Shown: positions 2,795 through 9,782 of the stretch, in pieces
Layout of the letters: the number at the start of each line of letters is the position of its first letter
Numbering within the stretch: the stretch's first letter is position 1
IMG/VR virus record: IMGVR_UViG_2778261203_000004
Source of the DNA: a virus
Lineage: Duplodnaviria > Heunggongvirae > Uroviricota > Caudoviricetes
Length of the DNA stretch: 11,745 nucleotides
Reading direction: 5' to 3' (one strand)
Position numbers and translations under genes: made by a program
Notes under the pieces: generated by a model
Told to the model about the DNA's origin: nothing
Seen by the model: the letters and a program-made list of their open reading frames with translations, nothing else
Databases searched by the model: none

Positions 2795-5387
2795 TTGCAT
2801 ATTCCTTAGCCCAGCGGGGCAGTGATAATGTCTTAATAGCTGGCCATTCATCGGTATTCAGGCAGTCAGACAGGGTTCGCAGATTGCGGTGATATTCCTG
2901 TTGACCTGCCAGTTTTGCTTCTTCGCCCATCATGAAAATTTCAACCGGATAACGTCCGCATTCAATAGTTGTGCTGGCAACCAGAAAAACGAAAGTTGGC
3001 TGCACTCCAAACTGTGCTTCATAACCGTCACTGTAGAATGCATCCTGAACGTGATAGCGGTAGTCGTAATAAGCGGTTTTGAATCGTTGAATATCCGCCG
3101 TAGTTTTCACGTCCATGATCCAGTGAAATTCAGGGATAATTTTGTCCGGACGGCACCGACACAAAATTCCTGTTTCAGGATCTTCCCAGTAAATTGATGA
3201 TTCAGCGTGTCCGGCGCTTTCAACAAGCCATTGCCCCAGCGGCAAAGCCATAACGCTTTGATACATGAGTTCAATTTTCCGGCCTTCTTCCGCAGTGATA
3301 ACCGTTTTTCCTGTGCTTGCGCATTCCATCAGAAACGCTTTCTCTTCTTCTTTTCCGGCGTTTGTACGGCGGTTAAATTCAGGTGCTACGATAAAGCGGT
3401 TACTGAATTCTTCCGGTTCAAGTACCCGGCAGTGGAAAGCAGTTCCTAAATCGAGCGTTTTTGTCTTTGTGGTGTCCACGGGGGCATTTTTACGCCACAA
3501 ATATAGTGCCGGAGTATCAGCAATGTCATCGAGCTGAGACTTACTGATACCGGGACCCGCGTGGTAATTCTCATTCGAAATTCCGTAATAAATACCTGGC
3601 TCTATGTCTTCTACGATTACGGGATCTGCGACTTCGCCAGTTTCATCACTGCAATCGCGATGCGGATCGCTGCCAGCATTCTCATTGTGCGGATGTTCAG
3701 CGCCTTCCATTTCCTCCGGATCATTTTCCTTAGCTTCAACCTGACTCTCTTCATCGAATGTTTCCTGGTATGTTGCGTCGCCCATCACCGCACCACAGTC
3801 AGGGCAGTTATCCCCGCCAGTCTGGCCGCAGGCATTGCAGGCTATTTCCGGTTCCTGTTGCACTACTGGCTCAGGTTGATTCATATCCGGGCTGGTTTTT
3901 TCCGTTTCTGGCTGGTTCTGGTACACACAATCGCGAGTCTGGATCCCCTTTACCCATTTCGGATCGTTCGGGTCGCTAATTCCGTCAACAAATTCATCAC
4001 GTGATGCAGCAAGCAATTTATCGGCATCGACAGGATTTTTTGATGGAATGTTTTTCCGGGCTTCATGGAGTTCTGCCCGCAGTTCCTGATATTTCGCATC
4101 AACAGAATTTACCTGTGACTGAGCATCCAGCGGCTGCGTGTCCTGATGATGTTCAGTTGCGTCCGGTTCCATTGTTTCAGCCTCTCCCTGTTCAACTGCC
4201 GTTGTTCCAGATGGTTGCGGTTTTTCTTCATCATCCTGTTTTCCTTCTTCTGTTACTCGCTGCGGCATCGGGGCAGAGGAGCGACCGCAGGCAATATCCA
4301 CGATTTCCGGATCAGGGTTGGCATGATCGGTTTCAGTCAGTACTTTGTTCAGATATTCAGTGACGTGCGCGGGGATGACCTCGATCCCAATTGGTGCTTC
4401 TTTTACGGACGCAACCACGATGGCGCGGGAATAATCCAGCCCGCCAGGCATGGTGATGAATTTGTCGCGGAAAACAGAAAAGGGCGGTTTATTTTCAGCG
4501 ATAATTTCCTCAATGCGTTTAGCGTGTGCCGGATGAAGGTTATAGATGTCCAGATCCATTGAACGGGCCAGTACGCCAGTGGCTACGTCGCGCGCCAGTG
4601 ACGTCAGATCGTGTACGAAACCTTCGCCGCGATCGGTGAGGTTTCCGCCGCCAGCATTAGCACCGGAAGCCGTGCGAGTGATGTGTGAAACACGATTACC
4701 CTTCATCCACTCTTTTGTCAGCAGTCCTCGATCGGTGTAGTCAGCGTTCAGGTATGCTTCGAAAAAAGCAGTTATCAGTCCCAGGTTTGAATTACCAGGA
4801 TTAGGGAAAACTTTGTCAGTGTCACGAACCAGTTTGTGGAGTTCGCGAATTTCCAGCGGGTCGAGCAGGCTGGTTTTGTGGGAAACAGCCAGGGCAGTAA
4901 CAGCCGGTAGTTCTTCAGCCCGAGCAATGTGTAATGCCTGGAGTCCGTCGCGTGAAACGTGCGTTACCGGTTTTTCGCTGCCGTGTTGAGCAAGCCAACG
5001 AATGGGCAGTTCCTGGCCAGAAATTGGGAGTAGCATATTCTCCTCAATCTCAGTCATGTCTTCGCCGTTGACGTTGGTATTGCCTTGATAGTGAGCGTTG
5101 TCTGGTGCTGCTCCCGGTTTTAGTTCCCATGTCATGGAGTCTTTGCTGAGTTGATAGCGTTCACTCCAGGTAAAATCGATCTCACCTTCAGCGGGCAGGT
5201 CATTAACGACAGGAAAATTCGTGGCAACAGCTTTAAAATAGCTGCTCAGTTTTTTACCTGACTTAACGATCAGGTAGTCCAGAGTGGCACAGGTCGATTC
5301 AAAATCGTTGCTTGCCCACAGGACGACGTCAGGTTCACCGGATGATTTTTTCGCTTTCCGTAACAGGAAGAGTGGTTTTGTGCTCAT
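2787..5387 (-). CDS. recE: RecE exonuclease VIII (866 aa)
   Basis: Single 866 aa ORF; GAGG Shine-Dalgarno upstream of ATG at 5387. Long acidic, low-complexity N-terminal and central region, then a C-terminal nuclease region. Directly upstream of recT with an 8 nt overlap. Confidence 0.9.
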
Positions 5388-5488: not shown

Positions 5489-5764
5489 TCAGATTTCACC
5501 TTTTAATTTCATTGCAATTAGAGTTGCCAGAAATTCGGCTTTTTTTTCTGCGGGCAGATTCTTTCCGATATGCACCAGGCACATTTTTTTGACACCTTCA
5601 TCAAGTGTTTTTACGTTGCCTGATGGACCATCGATATCAACCACAGTGAATGGGGTTTCTTTATTTTCTGTTTTAATTACGTAGCCAATGCGCTTTCCTT
5701 CCAGATTCACCTCGTGAACAATGTCATCGGTAGTTACAACAGTGGCTTCATAATTGGTAATCAT
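5489..5764 (-). CDS. racC: Small prophage protein RacC, function unknown (91 aa)
   Basis: 91 aa ORF with a perfect AAGGAG Shine-Dalgarno (complement of 5768-5773) upstream of ATG at 5764. Sequence MITNYEATVVTTDDIVHEV recognised from memory. Confidence 0.8.
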   Translation of the reverse strand: MITNYEATVVTTDDIVHEVNLEGKRIGYVIKTENKETPFTVVDIDGPSGNVKTLDEGVKKMCLVHIGKNLPAEKKAEFLATLIAMKLKGEI

Positions 5765-6670: not shown

Positions 6671-7159
6671 ATGTTGGATGTATTTACTCCATTGTTGAAA
6701 CTTTTTGCTAACGAGCCACTCGAAAGACTTATGTATACGATTATCATTTTTGGTCTCACTCTCTGGCTGATACCGAAAGAGTTTACTGTCGCATTCAATG
6801 CTTATACTGAAATACCTTGGCTCTTTCAGATTATCGTTTTTGCCTTTTCTTTCGTGGTCGCCATTTCCTTCTCAAGATTGCGAGCACATATTCAAAAGCA
6901 TTATTCATTACTGCCAGAGCAACGAGTATTGCTTCGTTTATCTGAGAAAGAAATCGCTGTATTTAAAGATTTCCTTAAAACAGGAAATCTTATTATCACT
7001 TCTCCTTGCCGTAACCCGGTTATGAAAAAATTAGAACGGAAGGGCATCATTCAACATCAGAGTGATAGCGCAAACTGTTCTTATTATCTCGTCACCGAAA
7101 AATACTCCCATTTTATGAAGTTATTCTGGAACAGCAGGAGTAGACGTTTTAATCGTTAG
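6671..7159 (+). CDS. sieB: SieB superinfection-exclusion membrane protein (162 aa)
   Basis: Start taken at ATG 6671 (MLDVFTPLLKLFANEPLERLMYTIIIFGLTLWLIP...), not the track's upstream ATG at 6548. Two hydrophobic helices (TIIIFGLTLWLI; WLFQIIVFAFSFVVAISF). It is the only + strand gene inside the leftward block. Confidence 0.8.
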   Translation: MLDVFTPLLKLFANEPLERLMYTIIIFGLTLWLIPKEFTVAFNAYTEIPWLFQIIVFAFSFVVAISFSRLRAHIQKHYSLLPEQRVLLRLSEKEIAVFKDFLKTGNLIITSPCRNPVMKKLERKGIIQHQSDSANCSYYLVTEKYSHFMKLFWNSRSRRFNR

Positions 7160-7311
7160 CTTACTGTGTGCTTCTCCAACCATCGGCGCGCACCAGTTTC
7201 GGTTTTAAATGTTTTGCTTTTGGTATACGTCATGGCAGTGAACGTTCCATCCTGGTTGGGGAACACGCCGCACACCAGGGATTCGTTGTTGCCGAGGTCG
7301 ATTTTTTGCAT
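7156..7311 (-). CDS. ydaF: Small hypothetical prophage protein (51 aa)
   Basis: Below the track cut-off. My translation of the complement from ATG 7311: MQKIDLGNNESLVCGVFPNQDGTFTAMTYTKSKTFKTETGARRWLEKHTVS, stop at 7156-7158. Converges on sieB with a 4 nt overlap. Weak ribosome-binding site. Confidence 0.55.
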   Translation of the reverse strand: MQKIDLGNNESLVCGVFPNQDGTFTAMTYTKSKTFKTETGARRWLEKHTVS

Positions 7312-7321
7312 TTTGCGAATC

Positions 7322-7456
7322 TCACATCTTGTTGCTACGTATAGCGACTTCTGCCTGCCAGAGATCCCAGTCGTTGCTGCGTAAAGCCTGCACAGCCTGG
7401 TTGTAAGTGATACCGCAACAATCCATCAAATACTGAACTACTTCGTAATGCACCAT
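7322..7456 (-). CDS. ydaG: Small hypothetical prophage protein (44 aa)
   Basis: Below the track cut-off. My translation from ATG 7456: MVHYEVVQYLMDCCGITYNQAVQALRSNDWDLWQAEVAIRSNKM, stop at 7322-7324. AAGGGGA about 12 nt upstream. Sits 10 nt upstream of ydaF. Confidence 0.55.
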   Translation of the reverse strand: MVHYEVVQYLMDCCGITYNQAVQALRSNDWDLWQAEVAIRSNKM

Positions 7457-7619
7457 CTTATCTATCCCCTTAACGCCGGGTGGCGGAACTAACTGCTGCA
7501 CTGCAAAATTTGAATCCCGCCGTCATGTTCATACGCCTCGGGCTGGCTACTTAACCCCTGACCACTGCCTGGTAACTCGAAGTATTGCCCGGCGTTCTGT
7601 GGGGCGGGGTGGGTTGGTA

Positions 7620-7672
7620 GGTATATAATGTACTTTGTGTTCATCATTGTAAAGTACTTTAAGTACATTTTA
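7620..7672. promoter_or_regulatory. AT-rich block with three GTACT-core sites; candidate leftward promoter/operator region
   Basis: ATGTACT at 7628-7634, palindrome AAGTACTT at 7652-7659, AGTACAT (ATGTACT on the minus strand) at 7662-7668; TATAAT at 7623-7628. Lies between the racR 3' end and the ydaG start. The same ATGTACT heptamer occurs twice in the racR-ydaS control region. Confidence 0.35.
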
Positions 7673-7743
7673 TGTATAAAAAAATGAGACGGGATAAAGT
7701 GAAGCACAAACCCGGAGGGGGACGCTACCGGATTTATGCTGGT

Positions 7744-8163
7744 TTAAGAGGCTTTTTGTTTTTTCTTTCGTGCTAACTCTTCGTAAATTGCATTGTACTT
7801 CTGTTTTTTCTCCTCAAGAGTTTTTAAAAGTTCATCTGTCTCACTGTCAGGGAGCTCGTCCAGAAGGTCAATGATGATTTTTTGTCTTGGATTTAACTCC
7901 TGATAGAAACGTATCTGTCCACTTTCTTCTGTATCCTCTCCCAAAAGATAGGTTGGTGTTGTTCCAATGAGTGTTGCTAATTCCCTTAATTTCTCTCGGC
8001 GAGGAATTGTTTCACCATTAAACCATTTGCTAACCGCTTTTGGTGTTAATTTCATTCGACGGGCAATTTCTGCCTGCCTTCCATGTTGTTCATAACCAGC
8101 GTTTTCACAGGCTAGCGCAAGCCTACTGGCGAACTCTTTACGCGCTTTATCTTCATGAACCAT
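7744..8163 (-). CDS. racR: RacR, CI-like prophage repressor with helix-turn-helix (139 aa in this sequence)
   Basis: Helix-turn-helix segment RQAEIARRMKLTPKAVSKWFNGETIP. No ATG, GTG or TTG lies in frame between 8163 and the upstream stop at 8218-8220, so the ATG at 8163 is the only start. No obvious Shine-Dalgarno, so it may be translated from a leaderless or short-leader mRNA. Confidence 0.85.
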   Translation of the reverse strand: MVHEDKARKEFASRLALACENAGYEQHGRQAEIARRMKLTPKAVSKWFNGETIPRREKLRELATLIGTTPTYLLGEDTEESGQIRFYQELNPRQKIIIDLLDELPDSETDELLKTLEEKKQKYNAIYEELARKKKQKAS

Positions 8164-8242
8164 AAGTTCAATGATATTCGCTCTTGAATGTACTGTCAGT
8201 TCTGTTATAGCATGTACTCAAAGTTCACATTGTGAGGGTGAT
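8164..8242. promoter_or_regulatory. Divergent racR / ydaS promoter-operator region (79 bp)
   Basis: ATGTACT at 8188-8194 and 8212-8218; AAGTTCA at 8164-8170 and 8221-8227; inverted repeat TTCAA-N12-TTGAA at 8166-8187. A candidate rightward promoter is TTGAAT (8184-8189), 16 bp spacer, TATAGC (8206-8211); the heptamers overlap its -35 and start region. GAGGGTGAT ribosome-binding site precedes the ydaS ATG at 8243. Confidence 0.5.
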
Positions 8243-8497
8243 ATGAACCAGAAAACACTTGAAGATGTAATCAAAACTGTTCGCGTTTCTGTTGTGGCCG
8301 ACGTTTGTGGTGTCAGCCAAAGAGCAATCTACAAATGGATGGATAACGGAAAATTGCCTCGCACAGAATATACCGGCGAAACAAATTACGCTGAAAAAAT
8401 CGCTCATGCATCAAACGGATTATTTTCTGCCGATGCAATTTTAACTATTGGCAGAAATAAAACTACTACGAAAAAGCTGATGGGAGTTGATTCATGA
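8243..8497 (+). CDS. ydaS: YdaS, Cro-like helix-turn-helix protein (84 aa from ATG 8243; track ORF starts at 8171)
   Basis: Helix-turn-helix VADVCGVSQRAIYKWMDNGKLP. ATG 8243 has a GAGGG Shine-Dalgarno; the ATG at 8171 would leave only 7 bp between divergent genes and has no ribosome-binding site. The stop overlaps the ydaT start as ATGA. Confidence 0.7.
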   Translation: MNQKTLEDVIKTVRVSVVADVCGVSQRAIYKWMDNGKLPRTEYTGETNYAEKIAHASNGLFSADAILTIGRNKTTTKKLMGVDS

Positions 8498-8916
8498 AAA
8501 TCAAGCATGAGCACATCGAATCAGTGTTGTTAGCCCTGGCAGCCGAAAAAGGGCAGGCGTGGGTCGCTAACGCAATTACTGAAGAATATCTGCGCCAGGG
8601 GGGCGGCGAATTGCCCCTGGTACCAGGCAAGGACTGGAACAATCAGCAGAATATCTATCATCGTTGGTTGAAAGGTGAAACGAATGCGCAAAGGGAAAAA
8701 ATTCAGAAACTGATCCCTGCGGTTCTGGCAATTCTTCCTCGCGAGCTGCGTCACCGACTCTGCATCTTCGATACCCTGGAACGCCGTGCATTACTGGCGG
8801 CACAGGATGCACTGAGTACGGCAATTGATGCGCATGATGATGCAGTCCAGGCCGTTTACCGTAAAGCACATTTCAGCGGCGGCGGTTCTCCTAGCGATTC
8901 TGTCGTAGTGCATTGA
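8494..8916 (+). CDS. ydaT: YdaT, CII-like / toxic prophage protein (140 aa)
   Basis: 140 aa ORF, GGGAG Shine-Dalgarno at 8480-8484, start overlapping the ydaS stop. Sequence MKIKHEHIESVLLALAAEKGQAWVANAITEEYL recognised from memory. Confidence 0.8.
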   Translation: MKIKHEHIESVLLALAAEKGQAWVANAITEEYLRQGGGELPLVPGKDWNNQQNIYHRWLKGETNAQREKIQKLIPAVLAILPRELRHRLCIFDTLERRALLAAQDALSTAIDAHDDAVQAVYRKAHFSGGGSPSDSVVVH

Positions 8917-8928
8917 TTGAAATTAATC

Positions 8929-8952
8929 GTACCGAACTGTTTTGTTCGGTAT
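8929..8952 (+). other. Stem-loop immediately downstream of ydaT (8 bp stem, 6 nt loop)
   Basis: TACCGAAC tgtttt GTTCGGTA. No clear U-tract follows, so it is not a convincing intrinsic terminator; it may be a processing or attenuation structure ahead of ydaU. Confidence 0.3.
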
Positions 8953-8960
8953 CAGTTAAA

Positions 8961-8981
8961 TGTAACGCTGCGAGCGTTACA
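8961..8981. repeat. Palindrome TGTAACGCT-gcg-AGCGTTACA, copy 1 (intergenic, 13 bp upstream of the ydaU ATG)
   Basis: Perfect 9 bp inverted arms with a 3 bp centre; it overlaps the ydaU ribosome-binding-site region. Confidence 0.7.
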
Positions 8982-8993
8982 AGGTGAAAACAA

Positions 8994-9782
8994 ATGGCTT
9001 CAAACTGGATAAAGCTCGAAGTTATTACGCCGGATAAGCCGGAAATATTCAGGCTTGCTGAGATTCTGAATATTGATCCAGATGCCGCATTAGGGAAAGT
9101 CATTCGCTTCTGGGCATGGGCGGATCAACAAATGATAGACGGTAACGCAGAGTGTAACGCTCGCGGCGTTACAAAAAGTGCAATAGATCGCATCACTTTT
9201 ATGGCTGGTTTTGCTGATGCGTTAATTCAGGTTGGATGGCTGGTCGAAACTAATGGTGTGTTGTCGCTTCCTAACTTTGAGCGCCATAACGGGAAAAGCT
9301 CTAAAAAACGGGCGGTTACAAACGAGAGAGTAACAAAAATACGAGAACTGAAACGAAAAGGTAACGCTGCCAGCGTTACAAAAACGGATCAAAAAGCGTT
9401 ACCAGAGGAAGAGAAAGAGGAAGATATAAATACTTATCTCCCCCTAAATCCCCCTCGCCAAAAACGAGCGTCTAAAAAATTCGAACCGGAGGCTATCGAG
9501 CTGCCTGACTGGTTGCCGGAAACACTCTGGCATGAGTGGGTTCAGTTCAGGCAGGCATTGCGAAAACCGATTCGAACGGAGCAGGGCGCTAACGGGGCGA
9601 TACGGGAGCTGGAAAAATTCCGCCAGCAGGGTTTTTCACCTGAGCAGGTGATTCGACACAGCATCGCCAACGAATACCAGGGCTTGTTCGCGCCGAAAGG
9701 TGTTCGACCTGAGACGTTACTCCGACAGGTTAACACCGTCTCGTTACCGGATAGTGCGATCCCGCCAGGCTTCAGGGGGTAA
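8994..9782 (+). CDS. ydaU: YdaU, putative replication-initiator (lambda O-like role) protein (262 aa)
   Basis: ATG 8994 preceded by AAGGTGA; an in-frame stop at 8985-8987 excludes a longer N-terminus. Position directly upstream of the DnaC-like loader, and the internal palindromes, support an initiator role. Confidence 0.8.
   Translation: MASNWIKLEVITPDKPEIFRLAEILNIDPDAALGKVIRFWAWADQQMIDGNAECNARGVTKSAIDRITFMAGFADALIQVGWLVETNGVLSLPNFERHNGKSSKKRAVTNERVTKIRELKRKGNAASVTKTDQKALPEEEKEEDINTYLPLNPPRQKRASKKFEPEAIELPDWLPETLWHEWVQFRQALRKPIRTEQGANGAIRELEKFRQQGFSPEQVIRHSIANEYQGLFAPKGVRPETLLRQVNTVSLPDSAIPPGFRG
9153..9173. repeat. Palindrome TGTAACGC-tcgcg-GCGTTACA, copy 2 (inside ydaU)
   Basis: 8 bp inverted arms; an extra half-site GTAACGC lies at 9142-9148. 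Encodes the peptide ECNARGVTK. Confidence 0.7.
9361..9380. repeat. Palindrome GTAACGCTG-c-CAGCGTTAC(A), copy 3 (inside ydaU)
   Basis: Perfect 9 bp arms. Further half-sites at 9313-9320 (CGGTTACA), 9330-9335 (GTAACA) and 9386-9392 (GCGTTAC). Encodes KGNAASVTK. Followed by an A-rich, purine-rich tract at 9400-9480. Confidence 0.7.

Follow-up and report, generated by a model that had tools for sequence, protein, structure and literature searches.

Candidate operators of an HK022-type immunity cassette with a short repressor in a Rac-like prophage

In phage HK022 the CI repressor binds cooperatively to adjacent OL and OR operators and the two sets are brought together by looping, according to the passage of PMC8053113 that cites Carlson & Little 1993. 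HK022 also possesses a third OL operator, 53 bp away from OL2, and CI has one more binding site ∼300 bp downstream of OR (PMC8053113). The annotated HK022 operators (GenBank X16093) comprise three oR sites, TGAACTTATGGTTCA, GGAACTGATAGTACA and again TGAACTTATGGTTCA, spaced by 24 and 33 bp, the third of which (487–501) overlaps the cI ATG, and two oL sites, TGTACTATTGGTACT and TGAACTTTAAGTACA, 24 bp apart. This architecture has been known since the HK022 work of 1989–1993 and is of textbook level. Two Rac-related systems have also been described. In the Rac prophage of Escherichia coli K-12, the RacR operators were defined in 2022 by DNase footprinting as (T/A)TAGGC-n3-GCCTA(T/A) (PMC9638921), and lowering of RacR raises the expression of ydaG, ydaF, kilR, ydaE and racC 40- to 70-fold (PMC6765115, PMC11014345). 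In CP-933P of E. coli O157:H7, repression of PL, PR and PRM is experimental, PL933P with its OL sites being repressed ∼100-fold by either PaaR2 or YdaS (PMC8630535).

The DNA considered here, referred to as the window, is the whole stretch of 11,745 nucleotides from the IMG/VR virus record IMGVR_UViG_2778261203_000004. An earlier note, made from the letters of this stretch, had pointed to copies of the heptamer ATGTACT on both sides of a repressor gene. The copies are located where that note placed them, at 7628–7634, 8188–8194 and 8212–8218 on the plus strand and at 7662–7668 on the minus strand, and the heptamer occurs nowhere else in the window. The palindrome AAGTACTT at 7652–7659 and the gap of 79 bp between the repressor ATG (8163) and the ATG of the rightward gene (8243) were likewise described correctly. 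In shuffles of the whole window 0.85 copies were expected against the 4 observed, and 4 were reached in 3 of 200. When each of the two AT-rich blocks (both 35–37% GC) was subjected to dinucleotide shuffling, ∼0.03 copies were expected against 2 observed (p ∼2–4e-4), and for the region 7620–8242 ∼0.07 against 4. Since none of 5000 local dinucleotide shuffles of that region reached 4, the heptamer is enriched over its AT-rich background, and the test by which the earlier note had proposed to refute its claim did not do so. The core chromosome of the same strain contains 3 copies in 50 kb.

Each ATGTACT proved to form half of an inverted repeat of 15 bp, TGWACT-N3-RGTWCA. It is this repeat that forms the actual unit, and not the heptamer accompanied by a separate 8-bp palindrome, as had been thought; AAGTACTT was rejected as an independent palindromic site because it is made up of the left OL2 half-site and a single flanking base on either side. 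Allowing for at most one mismatch to TGWACT-N3-AGTWCA, a consensus that was refined after the sites had been seen, the window contains 5 matches against 0.08 expected, and 5 were reached in 0 of 200 shuffles. The HK022 annotation and a survey of viral contigs (see below) are independent of the window. In the core chromosome there was 1 such 15-bp site in 50 kb.

Two of the sites are found over a predicted leftward promoter, PL, at a spacing of 24 bp. OL1 (7629–7643; TGTACTTTGTGTTCA, or TGAACACAAAGTACA in the PL direction), which has one mismatch to TGWACT-N3-AGTWCA, falls within the PL spacer and reaches into the −10 element, while OL2 (7653–7667; AGTACTTTAAGTACA) abuts and overlaps the −35 element and includes both AAGTACTT and the minus-strand heptamer. 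The remaining three form a triplet over predicted divergent promoters, with 24 bp between OR1 and OR2 and 33 bp between OR2 and OR3. OR1 (8213–8227; TGTACTCAAAGTTCA) matches the consensus perfectly and covers the predicted start of the rightward promoter, PR, whereas OR2 (8189–8203; TGTACTGTCAGTTCT) lies within the PR spacer. OR3 (8156–8170; TGAACCATAAGTTCA, or TGAACTTATGGTTCA in the direction of the repressor gene) overlaps the repressor ATG (8161–8163); it had escaped the earlier note, in which the right-hand set consisted of two sites.

All five sites align column for column with the annotated operators of HK022, OR1 with oR 430–444, OR2 with oR 454–468 and OL1 and OL2 with oL 1286–1300 and 1262–1276, respectively; OR3 is identical to HK022 oR3. 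The operator type, which had been regarded as undefined, is that of phage HK022. The window and HK022 share the operator consensus TGWACT-N3-RGTWCA, three OR sites at 24 and 33 bp of which OR3 overlaps the start codon of the repressor gene, and OL1 and OL2 placed 24 bp apart just downstream of the repressor gene, where they straddle a TTTACA −35 and a CATNAT −10 element. In both, a nearly identical recognition helix is present in the repressor, and the cro gene, whose products are 62% identical, is divergent from the repressor gene. The two loci differ in the distance between OL and OR, which is 560 bp in the window and ∼830 bp in HK022 when measured between the annotated counterparts of these sites (∼700 bp according to PMC8053113), and in the flanking genes, which are Rac-like in the window (ydaG/ydaF/recET, ydaT) but nun/putL in HK022. 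Neither an HK022-style OL3 nor the site downstream of OR was found in the window at ≤2 mismatches at either position. Furthermore, the window repressor, the DNA-binding domain of which is 46% identical overall to that of HK022 CI, ends in two helices where HK022 CI has the S24 domain of autocleavage and oligomerisation. In terms of its operators, the window represents another case of a known type of switch.

As in lambda, the repressor gene stands between two sets of operators that overlap divergent early promoters, with ∼24 bp from one operator to the next and a third OR site that would control the promoter of the repressor itself. The lambda operators are 17 bp long and differ in sequence from the sites in the window. 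Lambda also possesses three OL sites, as well as a C-terminal CI domain for cooperativity and looping that is absent from the window repressor, and its OL and OR are separated by 2.3 kb (PMC8053113), compared with 560 bp. The resemblance to lambda OL/OR suggested in the earlier note, with dual operator clusters flanking the repressor gene over predicted divergent promoters, is supported, given that 95 of 111 non-identical viral contigs have this layout.

The predicted PL (7625–7653, minus strand) consists of a −35 element TTTACA (7653–7648), a 17-nt spacer and a −10 element CATTAT (7630–7625). It was recovered in a promoter scan, and transcription from its predicted start at ∼7618 would read into the ydaG-like (7322–7456) and ydaF (7156–7311) genes. 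Both its position and its hexamers, which are invariant in the alignment (A2), match the annotated HK022 pL (TTTACA/17/CATCAT). A putative PRM-like promoter for repressor maintenance (8171–8199, minus strand; 10 of 12 matches in the scan) has its −35 element CTGACA (8199–8194) inside OR2 and its −10 element TATCAT at 8176–8171; with this placement, occupancy of OR2 may either activate or repress the synthesis of the repressor. From its predicted start at ∼8164 a leaderless or near-leaderless repressor mRNA would be produced; such mRNAs have been reported for lambda cI and paaR2 (PMC8630535). The predicted PR (8184–8211, plus strand) combines the −35 element TTGAAT (8184–8189), a 16-nt spacer and the −10 element TATAGC (8206–8211), preceded by TG at 8203–8204, and transcription from it would begin near 8218. 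This −10 element is weak and has no conserved final T, and PR fell below the threshold of the consensus promoter scan; it was therefore assigned by homology only. The −35 element, which the earlier note had proposed for the rightward promoter, is aligned with that of the annotated HK022 pR (TTGACT/16/CATAAT). An Rfam scan of 7000–8600 (E ≤ 1) gave no relevant match. Folding of the conserved PL leader (7457–7622, minus strand) was not significant (z = −1.5), and the putL region of HK022 was likewise unremarkable by the same test. A 72-aa ORF on the minus strand (7489–7707), which spans OL and PL and is unannotated in the identical RefSeq record, was taken as spurious.

The window is identical to the sequence of E. 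coli strain 7/2, whereas K-12 matches only its flanks. Between ∼7615 and ∼8487 there is no homology to K-12 Rac, the flanks being nearly identical up to ∼7614 and from ∼8488. The segment so delimited contains PL/OL, the repressor gene (7744–8163, minus strand), OR/PRM/PR and a cro-like gene (8243–8497, plus strand); its boundaries are positioned just outside the operator sets, and the operators at both ends differ together with the repressor. The region 7465–8517 is carried in different contexts by other E. coli prophages, and at least 516 of 5426 complete genomes match ≥80% of a 2-kb query that includes the cassette (window positions 7000–9000). The 84-aa product of the cro-like gene is a homologue of HK022 Cro (62% identity, E 1e-34) without a Pfam match to YdaS_toxin, for which K-12 YdaS scores 2.6e-31. 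The names racR and ydaS used in the earlier note thus do not apply to the two genes. The K-12 module resembles that of the window in its chromosomal position and flanks, in the 6-n3-6 form of its inverted repeats, in the three sites in the divergent gap, one of them over the repressor ATG, in the pair of sites upstream of ydaG, and in that RacR is also devoid of the S24 domain. It differs in its unrelated operator (TTAGGC-n3-GCCTAA), in its repressor of 158 aa and in YdaS, which belongs to a different Pfam family. CP-933P likewise resembles the window: the context is Rac-like and lambdoid, ydaT lies downstream, a small repressor without an S24 domain is encoded divergently from a cro-like gene, and there are operator sets at OR and OL/PL. 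Its repeat consensus, GTTTAGTAA, in four inverted repeats is different, however, and CP-933P carries a toxin-antitoxin pair between the repressor gene and PL and DNA-binding domains that are not closely related to those of the window (PMC8630535).

We compared four independent modules, those of the window, HK022, Klebsiella phage 2b and Salmonella locus L008. The half-site columns were 92% identical, with 52 of 60 invariant, and G2, A4 and C5 were invariant in 40 of 40 half-sites; the N3 spacers were only 39–72% identical. HK022, Klebsiella 2b and the Salmonella loci L008 and L011 share the OR spacing of 24 and 33 bp, and the 33 bp between OR2 and OR3 were kept in every module examined. A survey of 111 non-identical IMG/VR loci, anchored on OL2 and the −35 element only, revealed OL1 at +24 from OL2 in 108 loci and an upstream triplet at exactly 24 + 33 bp in 95. 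In 94 of these 95 the third site of the triplet overlies the start codon of a gene for a repressor with the same recognition helix. Altogether, 1.14 Mb of viral contigs contained 557 sites, 522 of them at these positions. The sites are thus non-random and homologous to HK022 oR and oL, with conserved half-sites and an exact spacing that recurs in ∼100 independent phage contigs.

The repressor of the window is a protein of 139 aa with a Pfam HTH_3 match, and tblastn, alignments (A3 and A4) and an AlphaFold model were used to characterise it. A CI/Xre-type HTH domain is followed by a C-terminal tail of two helices. In tblastn searches residues 4–102 were 46% identical to HK022 CI and residues 1–102 were 63% identical to the CI protein of Klebsiella phage 2b; the recognition helix, TPKAVSKWFNGE, is one residue apart from that of HK022 CI, TPKAISKWFNGE. 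No Peptidase_S24 Pfam match was obtained for the protein, and its alignment with HK022 CI stops before the Ala-Gly/GDSM region. Two confidently modelled helices stand in place of the peptidase domain in the AlphaFold monomer. A Foldseek search of the PDB retrieved generic Xre/CI HTH matches only, with none to the tail, and a sequence search of the PDB yielded only weak matches to the P22 C2 and 434 repressors. By analogy with lambda CI, the dimerisation, pairwise cooperativity and looping of HK022 CI are probably functions of the S24 domain. A search of genome contigs with the single repressor protein returned one near-identical Shigella locus only. In the literature searched we found no experimental work on the 139-aa repressor; a full-text search for TGTACT operators of prophage repressors gave no relevant paper, and that on sbcA, recE and the repressor nothing usable.

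Taken together, the motif copies are very probably the operators of an HK022-type lambdoid immunity cassette (∼7615–8487) that replaces racR-ydaS in a Rac-like prophage. The earlier note had instead considered the GTACT core a candidate recognition element of RacR, and the genes do occupy the racR and ydaS positions between flanks that are ∼97–100% identical to K-12 Rac. Yet the repressor is only 25% identical to RacR (four-sequence alignment A3) and 139 rather than 158 aa long, the TGWACT motif matches HK022, and the footprinted RacR motif (PMC9638921) has 0 matches in the window at ≤2 mismatches, against five copies in K-12 Rac, three between racR and ydaS and two upstream of ydaG; that the sites are K-12 RacR operators is extremely improbable. 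Equally hard to credit is that they are repeats which arose by chance in AT-rich intergenic DNA of promoter-like character and bind nothing specifically. The low GC content of the blocks and the merely moderate rarity of the heptamer in whole-window shuffles would agree with it, but the local dinucleotide shuffles, the excess of the 15-mer, the identical spacings of 24, 24 and 33 bp, and a conservation of half-sites around variable spacers that extends from the E. coli, Klebsiella, Salmonella and HK022 modules to ∼100 viral contigs all speak against it.

A further alternative regards the operators as fossils. The 139-aa protein would be what is left, in truncated and inactive form, of an HK022-like CI after loss of the C-terminal domain, and the sites would be bound to no useful effect or by Cro only. 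All 52 long-form relatives in the survey carry the S24 domain that this protein lacks, Rac-like prophages are often defective, and the OL3 of HK022 is missing from the window. On the other hand, the short form (139–142 aa) constitutes a conserved family, with 7 distinct proteins in 43 of the 95 modules and the OL–OR distance fixed at 558–561 bp; OL3 is present in 0 of these 43 loci and in 12 of the 52 long-form loci. The tail motif LDELPxSExDELLKTLEEKK is kept in E. coli variants (87–89% identical) and Salmonella relatives (62–65%), and the same short repressor is encoded by sequences that were submitted as complete phage genomes (Tritos, vB_EcoS-673R7, -613R10 and -666R9). Moreover, the five operators are all within one mismatch of the consensus, and the tail, modelled as confident helices, weakly resembles (22% identity, E 3e-5) the C-terminus of PaaR2, a functional non-S24 repressor that octamerises (PMC8630535). 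We therefore consider a fossil switch very unlikely. That the short repressor is a functional and widespread variant of HK022 immunity, in which a PaaR2-like two-helix tail has replaced the SOS-cleavable S24 domain, is a proposal to which we give about even chances.

Under the reading as an HK022-type cassette, dimers of the 139-aa CI-like repressor would recognise the 15-bp inverted repeats TGWACT-N3-RGTWCA. Occupancy of OL1 and OL2, which overlap the −10, spacer and −35 of PL, would control the ydaG-ydaF-kilR-racC-recET genes, and that of OR1 and OR2, which overlap PR, the promoter for cro-ydaT and the replication genes. Binding to OR3, over the start codon and predicted transcription start of the repressor gene, would result in negative autoregulation. 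Like its counterparts in other lambdoid switches, the HK022 Cro homologue most likely occupies these operators too. Pairwise cooperativity and bridging of OL and OR across the 560-bp gap may be envisaged.

Rac-like prophages carry interchangeable immunity cassettes, and what stands in the place of racR and ydaS therefore need not encode RacR and YdaS, a tempting mislabel that is corrected here. Conclusions on the operator, toxicity and essentiality of RacR are consequently not transferable between strains. The map of operators and predicted promoters covers the cassette of hundreds of E. coli genomes, in which it would control the recET/kilR and replication operons, and cross-immunity with HK022 is predicted. 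The one element that is not routine is the replaced C-terminal domain of the repressor, which bears on both prophage induction and the evolution of cooperativity. If the short repressor is indeed functional, these prophages would have immunity against phages of the HK022 type, yet RecA-mediated autocleavage would not induce them, and an antirepressor or another trigger would be needed. Dimerisation, pairwise cooperativity at 24 bp and any bridging between OL and OR across the constant 560 bp would then have to come from the helical tail instead of an S24 domain.

The heptamer ATGTACT occurs at 7628-7634 (+), 7662-7668 (-), 8188-8194 (+) and 8212-8218 (+), exactly where the earlier note had placed it, and nowhere else in the window. 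Whole-window shuffles gave an expectation of 0.85 copies, with four or more reached in 3 of 200, and three copies were counted in 50 kb of core chromosome of the same strain. In dinucleotide-preserving shuffles restricted to the local blocks, ~0.03 copies were expected per block, against two observed (p ~2-4e-4), and four copies within 7620-8242 were reached in 0 of 5000 local shuffles. The heptamer is therefore enriched, rather than no commoner than in AT-rich background, which the earlier note had named as the outcome that would count against it, and its clustering is confirmed not to be due to chance.

Each copy corresponds to one arm in an inverted repeat of 15 bp, so that the heptamer alone defines the motif incompletely. 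The pattern TGWACT-N3-AGTWCA (at most one mismatch) has five sites in 11.7 kb versus 0.08 expected, and five were reached in 0 of 200 shuffles. Read on the + strand, these are OL1 (7629-7643, TGTACTTTGTGTTCA) and OL2 (7653-7667, AGTACTTTAAGTACA), the left operator pair, and OR3 (8156-8170, TGAACCATAAGTTCA), OR2 (8189-8203, TGTACTGTCAGTTCT) and OR1 (8213-8227, TGTACTCAAAGTTCA), the right triplet. The spacing is 24 bp in the OL1/OL2 pair and likewise in the OR1/OR2 pair; OR3, overlooked in the right-hand set first proposed, lies 33 bp from OR2 and overlaps the ATG (8161-8163) of the leftward repressor gene (7744-8163). The right-hand heptamers resemble direct repeats because OR1 and OR2 each combine a TGTACT arm with a weaker AGTTC(A/T) arm in like orientation. 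The sequence AAGTACTT, present at 7652-7659 exactly as described, was considered as an element of its own and discarded, being the left arm of OL2 plus one base on each side.

The immunity region of the lambdoid phage HK022 (GenBank X16093) is annotated with three oR sites of 15 bp each, at intervals of 24 and 33 bp, the third of which lies on the cI ATG. Directly downstream of cI come two oL sites with a spacing of 24 bp; the annotated promoters are a pL with -35 TTTACA and -10 CATCAT and a pR consisting of TTGACT, a 16-nt spacer and CATAAT. The oR sequences are, in order, TGAACTTATGGTTCA, GGAACTGATAGTACA and TGAACTTATGGTTCA, and the oL sequences TGTACTATTGGTACT and TGAACTTTAAGTACA; operator consensus, number, spacing and position are alike in HK022 and the window. 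In multiple alignments that compare the window with phage Tritos, HK022 and Klebsiella phage 2b, the OR and OL operator sets show essentially no gaps, and the half-sites and promoter hexamers do not vary. According to tblastn, repressor residues 1-102 form a CI-type DNA-binding domain, 46% identical to HK022 CI, ~51% to 933W/phi24B cI and 63% to Klebsiella phage 2b CI. The window repressor has the recognition helix TPKAVSKWFNGE and HK022 has TPKAISKWFNGE, and the 84-aa product of the rightward, cro-like gene (8243-8497, +) shares 62% identity with HK022 Cro. Together, the annotated HK022 sites, the alignments, the recognition helix and the Cro identity identify the motif, on sequence grounds, as the HK022 operator. 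The whole repressor is found, at 99-100% identity, in phages Tritos, vB_EcoS-673R7, -613R10 and -666R9.

E. coli strain 7/2 matches the 2-kb region (7000-9000) at 100% identity; in K-12 derivatives only 52% of it is matched, in two pieces. In RefSeq the leftward gene is annotated as encoding an HTH protein of 139 aa and the rightward gene an HTH regulator of 84 aa; in K-12 the corresponding proteins are RacR (158 aa) and YdaS (98 aa), with 123 bp between their genes. Given the 25% identity between the window repressor and RacR (four-sequence alignment A3), the lack of a YdaS_toxin Pfam match in the rightward protein and the two-piece K-12 matches, the names racR and ydaS were misapplied. In the alignments, homology to K-12 Rac breaks at ~7614 (left, just outside OL1) and ~8488 (right, at the ydaT start), which delimits 7615-8487, with the left operators, repressor, right operators and cro, as a swapped immunity cassette. 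The element belongs to the HK022 immunity type and sits in a Rac-like prophage; of the OL/OR reading, the architecture is supported, the gene and protein identities are wrong, and the motif needed completing. An exact YdaT box (TTGATTCATGAAAATCAA, 8487-8504), matching the site defined for CP-933P and K-12 YdaT (PMC9986795, PMC11879457), overlaps the ydaT ATG (8494) and marks the right boundary of the cassette, and a second box with one mismatch (TTGATTGAAATTAATCGT, 8913-8930) is found at the ydaT stop.

Predicted PL (promoter scan and HK022 homology) lies on the - strand, with -35 TTTACA at 7653-7648 and -10 CATTAT at 7630-7625; OL2 adjoins its -35, and OL1 occupies the spacer and reaches into the -10. 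Predicted PR (+, HK022 homology) comprises -35 TTGAAT at 8184-8189, a 16-nt spacer and -10 TATAGC at 8206-8211 with an upstream TG; OR2 lies within the spacer and OR1 over the start. The scan also predicts a PRM-like promoter on the - strand (-35 CTGACA, 8199-8194; -10 TATCAT, 8176-8171); OR3 covers its start at ~8164, from which the repressor mRNA would be leaderless, a feature reported for the lambda cI and paaR2 transcripts (PMC8630535). Repressor dimers on the 24-bp pairs would shut off PL and PR, OR3 would provide negative autoregulation of the repressor, and Cro would act at the same operators. Cooperative binding at adjacent operators and OL-OR looping have been reported for HK022 CI (PMC8053113); their transfer to the 139-aa repressor is uncertain because the latter is devoid of the S24 domain.

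K-12 Rac offers a comparison in which the repressor differs. Footprinted RacR operators follow (T/A)TAGGC-n3-GCCTA(T/A); the racR-ydaS gap contains three, and one lies over the ATG (PMC9638921). This motif is absent from the window; in the K-12 Rac locus of E. coli NEB10-beta (L002) it occurs in the gap at 4271, 4296 and 4322. RacR-type operators are also present there between racR and the ydaG-like gene, 25 bp apart, at 3630-3644 and 3655-3669, a position equivalent to that of the OL pair in the window. Their sequences are ATAGGTAATGCCTAA and ATAGGCTATGCCTAA, the second being a perfect match to the published consensus. Two unrelated repressors are thus found in one and the same prophage backbone, and with each goes a motif of its own at both cassette ends; this argues strongly for the left-hand sites being operators. 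This reading agrees with the ~100-fold repression of CP-933P PL933P, which carries OL sites, by PaaR2 or YdaS (PMC8630535), and with the 40- to 70-fold increase of ydaG, ydaF, kilR, ydaE and racC when RacR is lowered in K-12 (PMC6765115, PMC11014345). Despite such derepression of ydaG, ydaF, kilR and racC, the RacR papers surveyed put operators in the racR-ydaS gap only; the pair at 3630-3669 would seem to be the OL/PL of K-12 Rac, perhaps one not yet reported.

The arrangement recurs in other modules. Tritos combines the repressor of the window with dicF/dicB-type left-arm genes, and a search for the strict palindrome TGTACT-N3-AGTACA (up to two mismatches) found exactly four sites in 8.4 kb, forming two 24-bp pairs 560 bp apart. 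In Klebsiella phage 2b the OR sites are at 2937, 2961 and 2994 (spacing 24 and 33), and a second cluster lies ~2.8 kb away at 5688, 5741 and 5765 (spacing 53 and 24), the 53-bp step equalling the HK022 OL2-OL3 distance quoted in PMC8053113. A Salmonella enterica module (GCA_028156025.1) with a short repressor, 65% identical to that of the window, has OR sites at 2437, 2461 and 2494 and OL sites at 3813 and 3837; a HigB/HigA-like toxin-antitoxin pair (higBA, 3053-3720) lies between its repressor gene and OL/PL, in the slot of paaA2-parE2 in CP-933P and rexAB in lambda. A metagenomic module whose repressor is 89% identical again has exactly five sites. Across four independent modules (window, HK022, Klebsiella phage 2b and Salmonella), half-site columns are 92% identical (52/60 invariant), with G2, A4 and C5 invariant in 40/40 half-sites, versus 39-72% for the N3 spacers. 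Scanning IMG/VR with OL2 plus the -35 (TGTACTNNNRGTACTTTACA) yielded at least 120 loci, of which 111 are non-identical; OL1 is at exactly +24 in 108 of the 111, and in 95 a triplet lies upstream at intervals of exactly 24 and 33 bp, its third site falling on the repressor ATG. Expected positions account for 522/557 consensus-like sites in 1.14 Mb, and the recognition-helix motif is present in 94/95 repressors of triplet-bearing loci.

Ahead of the ydaG-like gene, within the predicted PL leader, ~150 bp of GC-rich sequence (~7465-7614, -) bear no annotation; this segment is shared with K-12 Rac and occupies the position of putL in HK022. Some part of the 2-kb query was matched in 3846/5426 genomes, and ~7465-7619 (query positions ~466-620) has stand-alone matches at 86-89% in many E. 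coli genomes; among phage records, 13 match the segment, one of them an Actinobacillus phage (76%). It gave no Rfam match, and the stability of its fold is not significant (z = -1.5). It holds a 14-codon ORF (MNMTAGFKFCSAAV) with GAGG just upstream, and its Tritos counterpart overlaps the 5' end of a 79-aa ORF. An inverted repeat at 7708-7735 (AAACCCGG-(12 nt)-CCGGATTT), immediately beyond the repressor stop codon, keeps its stem, with a different loop, in a diverged module (L011). It has no T-run and was not called by the terminator scan; it may be a barrier between repressor transcription and PL.

In Pfam searches the 139-aa repressor matched HTH_3 only, with the S24 domain missing, and its alignment with HK022 and Klebsiella CI stops just short of the cleavage-site/GDSM region. 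AlphaFold (mean pLDDT 83) predicts five helices in the HTH domain (2-74), then a linker of low confidence (77-86) and two helices (92-103 and 106-138); Foldseek returned generic Xre/CI domain matches only. The tail, with the conserved motif LDELPxSExDELLKTLEEKK, is kept in E. coli variants (87-89% identity) and Salmonella relatives (62-65%), and bears a weak likeness to the PaaR2 C-terminus. Among the viral contigs (IMG/VR loci L013-L132), the short form (139-142 aa; 43 loci, 7 distinct proteins) has no GDSM motif, an OR1-to-OL2 distance of 558-561 bp and no OL3, whereas the long form (233-236 aa; 52 loci, 44 distinct proteins) has GDSM in 52/52, a distance of 832-2832 bp and OL3 in 12/52. These consistent differences show that the short-form repressor is a genuine variant, and a common one, rather than an isolated truncation. 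HK022-type modules come in two discrete forms, short non-S24 and long S24, and the recognition helix and operators common to both imply domain replacement without a change of DNA specificity. The operator architecture is that of the already known HK022 immunity type, and the non-S24 repressor is one moderately interesting twist on it.
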